DNA of 61,392 nucleotides, the filler included, from Eubacteriales bacterium (GTDB lineage: Bacteria; Bacillota; Clostridia; Oscillospirales; CAG-382), in NCBI GenBank assembly GCA_045636665.1. It is 4 parts of 4 records of this genome, joined end to end, with 100 filler letters (N's around TTAATTAATTAA, not from the genome) between each part and the next. Parts side by side here need not be neighbours in the genome. Positions count along the whole stretch, not along the records: positions 27,545 to 59,521 come from JAZTXY010000123.1; 3 more parts are not named here. One strand, written 5' to 3'. How positions within the stretch are numbered: position 1 is the first letter of the stretch; every line of letters begins with the position of its first letter. The position numbers were made by a program. Positions 45,001-51,000 of the stretch are shown piece by piece.

Positions 45001-48000
45001 AACGGAGGTGCGGAAGGTGCCTACTCCCCCGACGTGCCATAGCTGGTTGGATTTTTTATAGGTATGCCAACCCATGCACATTAAGTGGTTATTGCTTTTA
45101 AGCTCCGAAGCCTCGCATACCGTATGGGCTTTGGCGATATAGGGCTTATCGCTTTCAATCTGCAGTGCGATATATTTAAGAATATCCCCGATATTGCTTA
45201 CCATACCTCCGCCCGCAATATAGGGGTTGTTCCTCTTCCATACCCAGAAGGGTATGACCTTTTTACCTTTTGAGGCGGATGGATTTCTTTTTTCGGGATC
45301 AAGCTCAATAAGGGTTTCTTTAAGCCCCAAATCGTTATTTATAAAATCCTCAAAAAGCGTGGGAAAGGGTGTTTTTGTAACCGCCTCGGCTACTGCGGCA
45401 AGAATTGCCGAGGGAAAGTCGGAATATCCGTACCTCGTCTTGGGCTTAATAAAACGGCGTCGCTCAAGACAATTTATAACTGTTTTTACGGTGCAGCTCT
45501 CATAAGGATTTTTTCGGGCATAGCCGTGGGAGATAAGGGAGGGCAGAGTTACCTCTAACGGTGTCAAATGGTGGTATCCTGCAGTATGGGTTAAAAGCTG
45601 ATATATGGTGGGATACTTTCCCTTTTTAAGAGGCAAGTAGTTATCGATCGTTTTGTTAATATCAAGCCTACTGTCTTCATAAAGCTTCAAAATAAGATGG
45701 GTGGTTACGGTTTTGGATATCGAACCGATATCGTAAAAAAGACGGTTTTCTTCCGCATCTCCGAAAACGTAACATTTTCCGTTTTTATAAAGACCTATTG
45801 TCAGGCGGTTGTGCTCTGACAGGTCGAGATATTTATTTATTTTTTCAGCCAATTTGGAACGAAGTAGGTTTAAATTCACAAAAGCAAACTTCATAATTGC
45901 GGCCTCTTTGTTATTTTGAAGTGACTTGCCGACGTAATAATGTTACCGTTTCGACGTGTCCCGTACGGGGGAATAAATCGAACGGAGTCGCTTCGTTTGC
46001 GGTATAGCCCTTTTCGGCAAATATCGCGCAGTCACGCGCGAGCGTTGCGGGGTCGCAGGAAATATAAACCACCGTTTCGGGCTTCGCCTTTACAACGGTT
46101 TCGATAACCGCCTTGTCAAGTCCCTTTCTCGGAGGGTCGACAATGATAATGTTCGGTCTGCCGAAGCGCTTTTTGCATTCCTCAACACCGACCGAGGCAT
46201 CGCCGCAGACGAAAAGCGTATTTTTTTCGCTTCTGCCGTTAAGAGACGCGTTGATTTTTGCGTTTTCAATGGCGGCATCGATAATTTCAACACCGCAAAG
46301 CTTGTCGTTATCGTTTGCGATGCAAAGTCCGATAGTACCTGCGCCGCAATAAAGGTCGAGTATAATATTGCTATCCTTTTCCGAAGCCGCAAGTGCTTTC
46401 GCGTGGGTATAAAGCTTTTCCGCCATAACCGCGTTTACCTGATAAAAGGCGCGGGGCGAAAGCTCGAAAACCTTACCGCAAAGCGTGTCGGTAAGCGTTT
46501 CTTCACCAAGCAGGCAATAGGTTTCATCACCGAAAATCACGTTGTCGCGTCTTGCGTTGACGTTTATATGCACGCCGATGATTTCCTTAAAGCGCATTGC
46601 GACGGTTTCGGCAAGAAGCTTTAAATTTTTATGCTTTTTTGCAACCACGATGCAAAAAAGAATCCTTCCGTCGCGGTTTTTACGCATTACCGCGTGACGG
46701 AGAATACCGCTTCCGCTTTCCTCGTCGTATGCATTGATCAAAAGCTTGTTTGCCGTTTTTGCGGTGTAATCGGCAATCTCGGTAAACACCTTGTCCTGCA
46801 ACGGGCAATCGTTGTGGGCGATTATGCGGTGCGAATGACGCGCGTAATATCCGAATATTGCGCCGTTTTCGCTTTGCGCAAAGGGATATTGAACCTTGTT
46901 GCGGTATCTTTCGTCGCTGTCAAAAACCGTGTCGTTTACCTTAATGTCCATTTTCGCAATACGGGCAAACGCCTGCTTGACGGTGTTTTTCTTTAATTTA
47001 AGCTCGGCGTCATAGGAAATATGGCGGTATGCACAGCCGCCGCATCTTTTGCAAACCGCGCAATTCGGGTCTATCCTGTCAACAGACGGAGTTTTGATAT
47101 TAACGAGCTTTGCAAAGGAATGGCTTTTCAATTCCTTCATCACAAGGCAGTCGCAAATATCGCCTATTGCCGTATCGGCAACGAAATAAACCTTGCCGTC
47201 GACTCTGCCGACACCGAAGCCCTCGGGCGTGATATCGGTTATTTCAAGTGTTATAATATCGTTTTTCATTGTTTAACTCGGCTTTCTTTTTCGCCAATGG
47301 CCTTAGGTCTTGTAATCATTTCCAAAAACGGCGATATCACGTTAAGAGCAAGGATTACCAAATAACCCCATTCAAAACCGCCGACGTAGCGGTGAAGCAA
47401 AAACGTAACGCTTCCGCCGACCGCACCGAAGATAATTCTTCCCGACGAGGTCATGGGTATAGTTTGTTTTTCGTTCATTGCAAAAACCGCAAGGAAGCAA
47501 ACCGCCCCCGAAAGAAGCATACTGTAGGCATAATATTCGCTTTCGGCATCGTCGGAGGGGAATGCGAGCGAAAGCAAAAGGATAGGCACCAAAAACGCAA
47601 CAACGCCCTTCCAATCGGCTTCCTTTCTGATGCAAAGCCAGATGAGCGAAATTATCATTGCGGCAACGGCGATTTCACCGATATTGCCGCTTGCAAAGCC
47701 GTAAAGCTGTGCAAACACTCCGTCCTCGTAAACGCTTCCGTCAGCCATATATTGCAACGGCGAAATAACGCGGTAGCTTTCCAAAAGCTTGTCCTCTATC
47801 GAAAGGGAAAACGCGTTGAAATAGGCGAACGGGCGTGTAAACGCGGTCATTTGCGAGGAAAAGCAAAGATGAAGCATCGATGCGGAAAACACAAACGGGT
47901 TAAAAAGCCGTTTTGCGCGGATAACTCTTATGTTTTTGGCGATAACAACGAATAATGCGCCTATTATCGGAACCCAAAGCGAAACCGCGACAGGCATCAT

Positions 48001-51000
48001 AAAAGCGGTCAAAACACCGTAAATGCCAGTCATCGGGTCGAAGCAATCGTTACCGTTGCGTTTTAAAAGGAATCGGCGGACAAGGTAATCGAAGCCGACC
48101 GAAAACGAGGCGCAAAGCAAGCAGACGGTAATAGCTCTTGCGCCGAACATATAAACCGACCAAATAAGCACGGGAGCGATTGCGACCAACCATTCCGCCG
48201 CGTGCGAAAATACTGTTTTTTCTGCGTGGGTAAAGGGTGCGGAAATTCTTTTCATCGTTTCGCCTCCTTGTTGATAAGAGCCAAAAGCGGAATATTGCTC
48301 GGGCAGATATATTCACAAGCGCCGCATCCGATGCAGTATTTGTTCAGCCGCTTGCCGTCGCCCGCAAGCACGTCGCTCGGAAGCAAATTCACGGGGCAGA
48401 CCTCGGCGCATTCACCGCAGGAGATACAGTCGGTGCGTGTTCTTTCCGTCGGCTTTATCGCAATCAGCGCGTGTGTGCTGTCATAAACCGCGCCGGTTAC
48501 CTGCTTGCCCGAAAGAAGACTGTTTTCGGCGAAGAAGCAGCCGTTTTCCAAGCCGCCGCAGATATTCGAAATATCGTGCAGGGTAATGCCGCGCGGTACG
48601 CAAAGATTAGCGCCGTTTTTGATTCCGTCGCCGCAAACCGTAATATATCGGTCGAGCTGGGGCATTCCGCTTAGCATTGAATTGTAAAGCGCAATTGCCG
48701 TTTCGGGCGCGACGATAAGCACACCCTCGTCAAGTGCGGTTTGTCCTTTATTTAATTTCTTGACGTAAAGCGCATACATAAGCGCAAAATCGCCGTAAGG
48801 ATATTTTTCGTCAAGCTGTGCAAGAGCGAATATCTTATCGTCGGTTGCATATTTCGAAATTTCTGCAAAAGCCGCACTGCGGTAATATTCAGCCGCAAAA
48901 ACGCATTTTAACGCGCCGGTCGCCTTTAAAAGAATCTTCGCGCCGCCGACAACGGCTTTTGCCTGCTCGAGTCCCAAGCGGTAGTTTATCGCGCTTGACG
49001 CATCCGATTCGGTACCGTCGATAACAACTCTCGTGCAGTTGCCGTTTATGCTTTCCAAAAGCTTCCAAAGCGGTATGCCCGAGCGAGTGTCGGTAACGGC
49101 GAATTTTTTCGCGCTTGCCTTTATATCCTCAAAGCCAAGCTCGGTAAGCGGACGGCTTTCGGGTTCGAAGTAAGCTTCTTCTCCCTCGCTTCCGTCGGCG
49201 GTGACAACGAAATATTCAACGCCCTCAAGCGCCATTACACCGCGAAAAACACCCGCAATCGGTGAATAAACGGGGGTTTCACCGTTTTTGGCGATAAGAG
49301 TGCCGCGCTTAACTTGGCAGTTGACTGCGCAAATAAGCTCTCGGTCGCTTTCCGCTTTAAGGCAGGTTGCCGAGCAATCGGTAATATATTCTATTTCTTT
49401 TTTGCCGAGGTGCGTGCGTTCAACGGGGCGCGCTCCTCCCGGAAAATCAAGTATCATACGCTCATCTTCCTATAAAATATATTTATTCACATTAAGTATA
49501 ACACATATAATAAAAATTTCAAGTGAAAGTTTTGTAACAACTTCTTGAAAAACATCAAAATATAATGTATAATGGGTAAGACACAGAAAAAATCGGCTGA
49601 AAAGGTGATACTTTGAAACTGGAAAATAAACTTGACGTAAAGGTTTTTATCCTTTACCTTATGAATAAAGTCGATGAACCGCTTGAATATACAACAGTAA
49701 ACGATATCGTGCTTCAGGACGAATTTGTCAATTATTTCGATTTCGCGCTTTGCTTTTCCGAGCTGCTTGACGCAGGTCAGGTTGAAGAATCGGGCGAGGA
49801 AAACGGAGTTAAGCTTTACAAGGTTTCGGAAAGCGGAAAGGAATCCTTGGAAAGCTATGAAAGTTCGCTTCTTTCGGTCATCCGCGAGCACGCATCGAAA
49901 AGCGTACGCAGATTTATGGCGTACAAGCGAGAGGGAAGACGCGCTGTCGCTACGGTAACCGAATGCGGAGAGGGATATTTGCTTAAATGCGAAATTTTCG
50001 ACCGTGTAAAGAAGCTCTTTTCGACCGAAATTTATGTTTGCGAATATGAAGAAGCAATGCGCGCAAAGAAAAATTTCGAGGACCGCGAGGACGTAATACT
50101 CAAGGGCGTTCAAGCACTTATCGCGGGAAAAGTTAATTATATTTTTGAATAGGTGCTCGTTTGAATAAAAAAGAAAAAGCAAAGCTTGTTATTGAATTGC
50201 TCGAAAAACGCTATCCAAATCCCGAATGCGGACTTTATTGGGAGGGAAACCCTTATCGGTTGCTCGTTATGGCGATACTTTCGGCGCAATGCACCGACGC
50301 GCGCGTTAACGAGGTGGCAAAAACGCTGTTCAAGCGTTTTCCGACGGTTGAAAGCATGGCATACGCCGAAATAACGGATATCGAGCGTGAAATCCGCTCG
50401 GTAGGACTTTACCGTTCAAAGGCGTTGGCTTTAAAGGAATGCTGTAAGCGCGTTTTCGAGGTTTATAGCGGTAACGTACCGAGCGAAATGGATGACCTGC
50501 TTACGCTTCGCGGTGTGGGCAGAAAGGTTGCGAATCTTATAAGAGGCGATATTTTCGGGCTCGGCGGAATCGTTGCCGACACTCATTGCATCCGTATTTC
50601 GGGACGCTTGGGGCTTTCTAACGGAAAGGACCCTTTAATCACCGAACGCGATCTCGAAAAGCTAATACCGCGTCAAAAGCAAAGCGATTACTGCCACAGA
50701 ATGGTGCTTTTCGGCAGAGAGGTATGCATTGCCCGAAAGCCGAAATGCGCGGAGTGCGAATTAAAAGAAATTTGTATTTATAAGGACGAAAAATGATCGA
50801 TCCCAAAGCGTTACAAAAATTAATGTCATACACACGCCGTGCGATAGATAAATATCAAATGATCGAGGAAGGCGACAGAATTGCCGTCGGTGTTTCGGGC
50901 GGTAAGGACAGTCTTGCGTTGCTTTGTGCTCTGCACGGCTTAAAGCGGTTTTATCCCAAAAGCTTCGAAATCGTGCCGATAAACATCAAAATGGGATTCC

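Follow-up and report, generated by a model that had tools for sequence, protein, structure and literature searches.

A close known relative of the two proteins studied here is the Rnf complex, RnfCDGEAB, solved from C. tetanomorphum (7ZC6), A. woodii (9ERI) and A. vinelandii (8AHX). Its RnfC and RnfD have the same folds as our pair (TM 0.87-0.89 and 0.74-0.82, respectively), and the two share the C-D gene order, a predicted C-D interface, two [4Fe-4S] sets and, for the most part, the riboflavin-ligand residues; the pair descends directly from the family's operon. In most genomes, however, the pair comes without G, E, A, B or ApbE, and both the FMN/NADH motifs of the orphan RnfC and the covalent-FMN pocket of the orphan RnfD have been replaced. 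With these cofactor motifs and subunits gone, ferredoxin:NAD+ activity and Na+ pumping would not be expected of the pair.

In Na+-NQR, as in the pair, an RnfC homologue without FMN or NADH binding (NqrA) is still attached to an RnfD homologue (NqrB). NqrA has lost its clusters as well, whereas NqrB has covalent FMN and quinone helices and works within a six-subunit pump. The pair keeps the cysteines; its RnfD has neither an N-terminal extension nor the NqrB quinone helices, UbiA/MenA is found in 0/5 orphan-only genomes, and PF02508 is mostly absent. Nqr/Rnf-like two-subunit systems are also partial, Rnf-derived modules, with an RnfD-like subunit that lacks the flavinylated Thr (PMC8238504; 10.1101/2024.03.13.584918). 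In those systems RnfD is fused to an NqrF-type NAD domain, a flavinylated RnfG-like protein is the partner and ApbE is needed; our RnfD-like protein is paired with a degenerate RnfC and lacks a PF00175 fusion, and the source genome (80.5% complete) yielded no FMN_bind, ApbE or RnfA/E.

RnfC2 of MetFV-type MTHFR and PrdC (TIGR04481), stand-alone and NADH-linked RnfC modules, lie beside a catalytic partner, whereas the orphan pair has no such neighbour; on the PrdC profile the orphan RnfC reaches 44.5 vs 490 bits. The proposed FdhAH-RnfCD (10.1101/2025.07.15.664484) likewise places RnfC and RnfD outside Rnf, NADH-linked and next to a catalytic partner. A pair of the present kind was not described in the literature searched, which lay mostly outside subscription journals and excluded supplements, and a search of the ESM Atlas returned RnfC-like and RnfD-like clusters only.

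The locus and its distribution

The window, the 61,392-nucleotide stretch of DNA that was analysed, contains rnfC, rnfD and rlmD in series (Table 1), with 4-nt overlaps of the rnfC stop with the rnfD start and of the rnfD stop with the rlmD start. Both Rnf-like proteins fall under their NCBIfam cut-offs (TIGR01945, 135 vs 245.95 bits; TIGR01946, 118.9 vs 207.05 bits). PF03116 is the sole Pfam match of the RnfD-like protein; on the RnfC-like protein the Pfam Nuo51 FMN-binding domain scores above cut-off (45.5 vs 31.2 bits). Between positions 40000 and 59000 no Rfam match reached the gathering score.

Table 1. Features of the rnfC-rnfD locus, in window coordinates.
Feature	Position	Strand	Remarks
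Degenerate rnfC (RnfC-like ORF, 401 aa)	48252..49457	-	RnfC fold with both [4Fe-4S] cysteine sets; replacements at the FMN/NADH site
Degenerate rnfD (RnfD-like ORF, 329 aa)	47266..48255	-	RnfD/NqrB fold
rlmD (23S rRNA m5U1939 methyltransferase)	45911..47269	-	Downstream, coupled to rnfD; ancestral neighbour
DUF4364 and nth genes, divergent	49613..50796	+	Markers of the ancestral rnf locus
RnfC Cys344/347/350/354, first CxxCxxCxxxC	48396..48428	-	108/108 homologues; coordinates computed from the ORF
RnfC Cys375/378/381/385, second CxxCxxCxxxC	48303..48335	-	108/108 homologues
RnfC aa 120-130, former glycine-rich FMN loop	49068..49100	-	Now a conserved D-x-R-S-G-x-x-L loop
RnfC aa 147-153, former N-x-A-E-C-E-P	48999..49019	-	Now D-x-T-[ED]-x-D; D147 and T149 invariant in homologues
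RnfD Asn119	47899..47901	-	Equivalent of C. tetanomorphum riboflavin ligand Asn124; mapped by hand on the alignment
RnfD Glu262	47470..47472	-	Equivalent of riboflavin ligand Asp248; by alignment
RnfD aa 159-167, former flavinylation segment	47755..47781	-	Ser165 occupies the place of Thr153; no ApbE motif left
RnfD Trp296-Gly297-Tyr298	47362..47370	-	Replaces Gly282-Val-Ser284 (covalent-FMN pocket lining)
Candidate extended -10 sigma-70-like promoter for rnfC-rnfD-rlmD	49495..49522	-	Consensus match only; region has 11 sites vs 12.0 expected
Purine-rich RBS-like hexamer ahead of rnfC	49466-49471

The survey's finding was that a divergent RnfD is present in all HQ genomes of the genus (23/23), and this extends to all 61 genus genomes, although a contig end interrupts the divergent copy of G002. 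RnfC matches are equally complete (61/61), and, contig ends aside, both frames are open in every genome. The survey's count of RnfA/E in 8/23 HQ genomes was reproduced (10/61 across the genus). ApbE is limited to the same 8, so the remaining 15 lack the flavinylation enzyme. All 8 keep the orphan pair alongside a second operon that carries its own C and D; this operon, previously called canonical, is not fully so in G012 and G017, where RnfA/E are weak (E about 1e-24) and rnfB is absent from the fetched stretch.

The conserved neighbourhood reported earlier was recovered in 46 genus loci (45 distinct, since L040 = G036): DUF4364 is found at 45, nth at 43 and rlmD immediately downstream at 41, its misses being contig ends, and rnfG, rnfE, rnfA, rnfB and apbE occur at 0/46. 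Retention in every member of the genus thus stands, but not as a single-genus trait. Reduction to RnfC-RnfD is family-wide, has evolved repeatedly and is found in other families too, where the pair lies beside different neighbours and no partner gene travels with it. RnfA/E went unmatched in 38 genomes of the order; 24 of these still have RnfD and 14 have lost both. No RnfD match was obtained in 15/301 order genomes; the function is therefore dispensable elsewhere.

Descent from a full operon

In FastTree and quick IQ-TREE trees, both with long-branch warnings, the orphans group with the native full operons of the family and apart from the second operons, on branches clearly longer than those of the native operons. 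Decay at this one locus is graded across the family, from CDGEAB through CDG'E'A' and CD plus a remnant to CD. A full operon had been assigned to the DUF4364-nth locus of G067. At that locus there are instead C, D and a membrane ORF of 177 aa, the full operon of G067 lying on another contig; it is genus g7 that has the full operon there, in 5/9 fetched loci and likewise followed by rlmD. In degenerate g7, G', E' and A' persist at dN/dS 0.29-0.53. RnfB remnants of G190, G219, G176 and G312, judged by eye, keep the polyferredoxin and miss the mobile cluster domain. The membrane ORFs of 170-200 aa that follow rnfD in g5, g10 and g15 are RnfA-like by position and alignment, but their matches to the RnfA profile are not significant (best E 0.68). 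The loss sequence leading to the pair is apbE, rnfB, rnfG, rnfE and, last, rnfA.

Purifying selection, a question left open by the survey, acts on both genes: median dN/dS is 0.145 for the RnfC-like and 0.151 for the RnfD-like protein, next to 0.134 for rlmD, and values for the pair lie between 0.05 and 0.20 across all 18 pairs examined. We are nearly certain that the pair derives from the family's own rnfCDGEAB operon, of which it represents the RnfC-RnfD arm, and that purifying selection maintains it. The tree, the synteny intermediates and dN/dS of about 0.15 agree with the earlier view of a retained remnant of the ancestral operon; we infer that the retained pair has been repurposed.

Cofactor sites and the predicted complex

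All eight Fe-S cysteines are present in the sequences of 108/108 RnfC homologues, as the survey had held for both sets; the two CxxCxxCxxxC sets were counted in 46/46 rows of the genus, 26/27 other family orphans, 5/5 of g7/g12 and 18/18 rows from other families. GxGGAxFP, ECEP and GGPMMG occur in none of the 108. The reported difference from canonical RnfC is equally sharp, with GxGGAxFP plus ECEP in 0/46 genus orphans vs 37/38 rows classed canonical, a denominator that includes the one exception, G170, itself an early degenerate. New conserved residues stand where the old ones were, in the RnfC cleft and in the RnfD outer loop. Across the 108 homologues, D/E123, D147, T149, E/D150 and D/E223 are found in all, R160 in 107 and R125 in 101; the cleft replacements vary between lineages. 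The RnfC model is of the quality and likeness described before (pLDDT 94.8; TM 0.89 to 9eri_C).

The RnfD flavinylation motif is degraded as claimed, a relaxed ApbE motif being found in 0/45 genus vs 21/37 canonical rows. A Ser or Thr does remain at the Thr153 position in 45/45 genus rows, for which reason the survey had left flavinylation open, but the modification is effectively excluded in 15/23 HQ genomes because these have no ApbE gene. The covalent-FMN pocket serine (Ser284) is retained in 0/97 degenerate RnfD rows and the Arg130 equivalent in 0/46 genus and 0/28 other family orphan rows; bulky residues occupy the outer FMN pocket. Both riboflavin-ligand residues, the equivalents of Asn124 and Asp248, are required for A. 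woodii Rnf activity. Asp or Glu stands at the Asp248 position in 45/45 complete genus rows, 24/28 other family orphans, 5/5 of g7/g12 and 16/18 rows of other families, with loss in 4/4 g8 rows. The Asn124 equivalent is Asn in 35/45 and Cys in 9/45 genus rows, and Phe in 6/7 g5 rows. Common to all lineages is a core of cysteines, glycines, prolines and RnfD Arg40/Arg288.

Prediction of the RnfC-RnfD complex gave an ipSAE of 0.63 vs 0.00 for the best control, with contact agreement of at least 89% and partner pLDDT of at least 81; in a benchmark the mark was reached by 51/78 solved and 2/108 mismatched pairs. The predicted complex shows likeness only, because a like complex is already solved. 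Its interface joins RnfD 3-18 and 316-322 to the RnfC ferredoxin domain. Going by the structures, the heterodimer very probably persists, with the RnfD terminal arms tethering RnfC to the membrane.

Possible activities of the pair

Judged from the structures, Rnf-type NAD(H) binding, covalent FMN and Na+ pumping would be impossible for the pair. Our preferred reading, to which we give somewhat less than even weight, is a membrane-anchored, cytoplasm-facing one-electron relay without NAD or Na+ pumping. Its cofactors would be the two [4Fe-4S] clusters and, in most lineages, non-covalent riboflavin in RnfD. Electrons would be exchanged at the ferredoxin/flavodoxin level and might reach a small acceptor, membrane-side or outside, via the remodelled RnfD outer pocket. 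The relay may act as an electron valve in hydrogen-producing fermenters; [FeFe] hydrogenases are present in 5/5 orphan-only genomes. In its favour, the losses fall exactly on the trans-membrane and NAD steps. Against it, an electron outlet is not evident, given the bulky outer pocket and the lack of UbiA/MenA and quinone helices; riboflavin ligands are not universal (g5, g8 and the Cys rows of the genus); the cysteines may be retained just for folding; and the acidic new RnfC cleft would repel an acidic ferredoxin.

If the clusters were structural, RnfD could anchor RnfC so as to hold an essential partner at the membrane, a non-redox role for which NqrA, kept without cofactors and anchored by NqrB, is a precedent. 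The minimal common core, the loss of one riboflavin ligand each in g5 and g8 and the lingering of G', E' and A' in degenerate g7 are consistent with such a scaffold. We find it doubtful, as orphan RnfC retains all eight cysteines where NqrA has lost them, the riboflavin-site Asp/Glu is preserved in most independent lineages and no partner gene accompanies the pair across families. It is improbable that RnfD passes or senses a small solute or ion as a redox-gated channel or sensor, with RnfC as an Fe-S cap. The fold is akin to urea/ammonium transporters (Foldseek pairs it weakly with urea and Rh channels, at E 0.005-0.04 and TM about 0.4), but this likeness is common to all RnfD/NqrB and far below that to RnfD. 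Aromatic and acidic residues that have become conserved in the outer loop, a buried acid maintained at RnfD 262 and the failure of canonical Rnf to replace the pair within the same genome would fit a channel; in simulations of A. woodii Rnf, however, RnfD was dry and non-conducting for Na+, and riboflavin import is already covered in 5/5 orphan-only genomes by an FMN riboswitch with a gene whose sequence resembles the ECF S-type, which also disfavours a riboflavin importer. The conserved rather than randomised cleft and the Nuo51 match could point to a remodelled dehydrogenase, whose rebuilt RnfC cleft would bind flavin or another small substrate and feed the clusters. We consider this quite improbable: none of the 108 homologues has the glycine-rich loop, ECEP or GGPMMG, and lineage-specific replacements fit separate tinkering better than one common substrate.

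Cooperation with Rnf subunits encoded elsewhere, in a second operon or as very divergent G/E/A, is very unlikely. Most g5, g9 and g10 genomes, like the 8/23 HQ genomes of the genus, have a second operon, and Pfam misses some remnants; yet second operons supply their own C and D, RnfA/E and ApbE are both absent in 15/23 HQ genomes, and family-built A, E and G profiles found nothing in the 80.5% complete source genome (best E 0.078). Hardly credible, and largely refuted, is a slowly decaying relic retained merely through its position ahead of rlmD: long branches and coupling to rlmD speak for it, but low dN/dS in 18/18 pairs, frames open in 61/61 genomes, newly invariant residues and retention in families with different neighbours speak against it. 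Among narrower candidates, a quinone reductase is disfavoured by the UbiA result, and an Ech-type hydrogenase partner was rejected because the Ech/complex I large subunit (PF00346) is found in 0/5 orphan-only genomes. Fe-S service to the Fe-S proteins Nth, TtcA and RlmD was set aside as evidence: nth and rlmD also flank the g7 full operon, and other families have different neighbours.

We lean slightly towards a second activity of RnfC-RnfD, as an Fe-S/riboflavin electron valve or a redox-gated channel, that needs neither NAD nor covalent FMN, ApbE or ion pumping. It would be valuable enough for many anaerobic lineages to have cut Rnf back to this core independently and by one shared route, and an intact second Rnf in the cell would be no substitute. 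As a two-protein unit of 730 residues, the pair is simple to express and assay. Matches to rnfC and rnfD in gut genomes are currently taken as evidence of a six-subunit Rnf ion pump. Because both genes occur without it throughout one genus and in several more families, these annotations are misleading for metabolic models. Nature provides here a series that runs from a complete operon down to two genes, is linked to loss of ApbE and has arisen repeatedly and independently; it amounts to a deletion experiment already set up. The series reveals which cofactor sites can be dispensed with, implies that the RnfC-RnfD arm has a second function and supplies living intermediates between RnfC and the cofactor-less NqrA.

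The RnfC-RnfD pair in the window and across the genus

The pair lies entirely inside C123, one of the four contigs that N spacers join in the window (C119, C121, C123 and C136). The two genes overlap by 4 nt, as do the pair and rlmD, and a DUF4364-nth-ttcA block is oriented away from them.

Features at and around the pair in the window
Feature	Position	Strand	Length	Type
RnfC-like gene	48252-49457	minus	401 aa	ORF
RnfD-like gene	47266-48255	minus	329 aa	ORF
Beta-lactamase-fold protein between two RlmD-like paralogues	43630-47269		452 and 377 aa (paralogues)	
BlaI-type repressor and WYL-WCX protein between ttcA and rpoB	52253-53665			

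Neither gene reaches the curated rnfC and rnfD cut-offs, and the closest solved relatives of both proteins, by sequence and by fold, are Rnf subunits. The RnfC model is as good and as similar to A. woodii RnfC as the survey's finding had it (pLDDT 94.8; TM 0.89 to 9eri_C); the RnfD model has a pLDDT of 85.8 and a TM of 0.82 to 8ahx_D. The predicted RnfC-RnfD complex (ipSAE 0.63 vs 0.00 for the best control, contacts agreeing to at least 89% and a partner pLDDT of 81 or more) was judged by a mark attained by 51/78 solved and 2/108 mismatched pairs; because Rnf is already solved, its score measures likeness, not binding. The genome of the window (80.5% complete) yielded no other RnfD match and none to RnfA/E, RnfG-type FMN-binding proteins or ApbE, confirming the reported absence of ApbE.

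Throughout the genus, named Coliplasma in the survey (definition in the available part of PMC8957277), RnfC and RnfD each match in 61 of 61 genomes, including 23/23 of high quality. RnfA/E match in ten (8/23 of high quality), as the survey had described, and ApbE in nine, its high-quality carriers being the same eight. ApbE attaches FMN (role and motif from the accessible text of PMC12052999); thus, the pair is retained without its FMN-attaching enzyme in 15/23 high-quality genomes. The neighbourhood is constant, again as claimed: of the 46 loci read, 45 of which are distinct, 45 have DUF4364 and 43 have nth on the upstream side, and 41 are followed immediately by rlmD, every miss falling at a contig end. 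None of the 46 carries rnfG/E/A/B or apbE.

Cofactor sites and selection

Residue roles were transferred by hand through alignment from PMC9588780 and 10.1101/2024.06.21.599731, each available in part. All eight RnfC cysteines are present in 108/108 close homologues, whereas GxGGAxFP, ECEP and GGPMMG occur in 0/108, so RnfC has lost the FMN/NADH motifs and kept the Fe-S ligands, as proposed. Its cleft is remade with new conserved residues (D/E123, R125, D147, T149, E/D150, R160, D/E223). Orphan RnfC proteins of two other genera, g10 and g15 (loci L145, L146, L147, L149, L151; 480-622 aa in total), have long, mostly acidic low-complexity C-terminal tails.

In RnfD, Ser284, a contact to covalent FMN according to the same partly available sources, is found in 36/38 rows classed canonical, the two exceptions being a partial row and genome G170, itself degenerate, vs 0/97 degenerate rows, which mostly have Tyr, Phe, Leu or Val. 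Arg130 is absent from all 46 genus rows. The flavinylation motif is indeed degraded: its relaxed form occurs in 0/45 complete genus rows vs 21/37 canonical ones, though the attachment position is still Ser or Thr in 45/45. At the riboflavin site, Asp248 is D or E in 45/45 of these rows and Asn124 is retained in 35/45. Within the genus, aromatic and acidic residues have become conserved in the outer loop where RnfG formerly docked.

The survey's view that the pair is kept is borne out by median dN/dS values of 0.145 for rnfC (17/18 pairs inside the dS filter) and 0.151 for rnfD (18/18), against 0.134 for rlmD, 0.113 for nth and 0.06 for DUF4364 (Nei-Gojobori, close and partly non-independent pairs). 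Orphan branches are longer than native full-operon branches, which together with low dN/dS argues that constraint has shifted, not lapsed.

Descent and order of loss

Descent, loss order and selection of the pair are established by the loci, trees and substitution rates. In the family set (104 genomes: those at least 85% complete, plus the window's own), RnfD matches in 102, RnfA/E in 71 and ApbE in 69. At the nth-DUF4364 locus, five genomes of genus g7 carry complete CDGEAB, all with ApbE; four have C, D and degenerate G/E/A without B, and these are exactly the g7 genomes lacking ApbE. Genera g5, g10 and g15 retain C, D and one unassigned 170-200 aa membrane ORF; g1, g8 and g9 only C and D. 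The claim that a sister has the full operon at this locus is true of g7; G067, the handle cited for it, as numbered in this analysis has C, D and a membrane ORF here and its full operon on another contig, so that detail was not reproduced. The hydrophobic ORFs behind rnfD (L137, L139, L171, L145-L151; dN/dS 0.18-0.38) are under selection and may be RnfA remnants past profile recognition. In degenerate g7, dN/dS is 0.29-0.53 for G', E' and A', 0.17-0.22 for D and 0.23-0.35 for C; intact g7 rnfA has 0.04-0.08.

Orphans adjoin native operons in the trees, apart from second operons, whose origins lie in several branches (one tree left out three partial rows; the other used 49 chosen rows). Degenerate g7 is nested in intact g7 (support 100); five orphan genera group together (99), and a separate clade (98) unites the degenerate copies from families f5, f6, f8, f19 and f22. 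The reduced state would thus have at least three origins, on a tree built quickly and flagged for long branches. The second operon of G012 and G017 (L134, L135) reads apbE-rnfC-D-G(439 aa)-E-A; its RnfA/E matches are weak (E about 1e-24) and the stretch lacks rnfB, which makes it a further non-canonical Rnf.

Across 301 genomes of the order, RnfD matches in 286 and RnfA/E in 263. Among the 38 without RnfA/E, 14 also lack RnfD and 24 retain it (own family 9, f14 10, f18 2, f19 2, one fragmented f15 genome). Nineteen of 20 loci read in other families, including G170, are orphan or decaying operons; one is intact. ApbE occurs in 5/28 genomes whose sole set is degenerate (17 judged from the locus itself, the others classed by E-value) vs 9/9 intact controls, and in 4/15 without RnfD. 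In the class sample RnfD matches in 240/301 genomes. In 8/8 genomes of genus g206, which belongs to another order (L234-L241), degenerate C-D genes precede an RnfG-like gene of 430-465 aa and an uncharacterised membrane gene of 358-409 aa.

Possible function of the pair

The pair, though built from Rnf parts, is not a member of Rnf, of Nqr (accessible text of PMC4014512) or of Nqr/Rnf-like systems (PMC8238504 and 10.1101/2024.03.13.584918, in the parts available). FdhAH-RnfCD, a proposed NADH-linked complex, is arranged differently in the portion seen of 10.1101/2025.07.15.664484. Searches of an incompletely covered literature turned up no account of an RnfC-RnfD pair that lacks flavin and does without ApbE.

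We infer a membrane-tethered dimer with two clusters that would carry out no NAD chemistry, covalent FMN binding or Na+ pumping; the Na+ path of Rnf runs in RnfA/E (10.1101/2024.06.21.599731, as far as available). The pair would be what is left of the Rnf wire, its cytoplasmic end C1-C2-riboflavin (PMC12174285, available part). Read by eye, the RnfB remnants at L197, L198, L213 and L215 retain the polyferredoxin and the membrane anchor, and their mobile N-terminal cluster domain is missing; at L197 and L198 they directly follow rnfD. This leftover wire end and the retained polyferredoxin led us to propose, tentatively, an electron relay or valve at the ferredoxin level in fermenters that have [FeFe] hydrogenases (5/5 orphan-only genomes) and no Ech (0/5). 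Counted against it are riboflavin-site losses (Asn in 6/7 g5 rows, the acid in 4/4 g8 rows). It is weakest in lacking an evident outlet for the electrons: UbiA is absent (0/5 orphan-only genomes), as are quinone helices, and the outer pocket is filled.

A purely structural scaffold, the nearest rival, is rather unlikely, and a redox-gated channel or sensor more so. Slightly less probable still is a remodelled dehydrogenase, a reading to be set beside both the remade cleft and the lost NADH motifs. That the pair works with other subunits is improbable, and a mere relic, which the dN/dS values oppose, hardly credible. In all five orphan-only genomes an ECF S-component-like gene is preceded by an FMN riboswitch (as at L218, G000:C77). 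The degenerate RnfC-RnfD pair is real, selected and recurrent.
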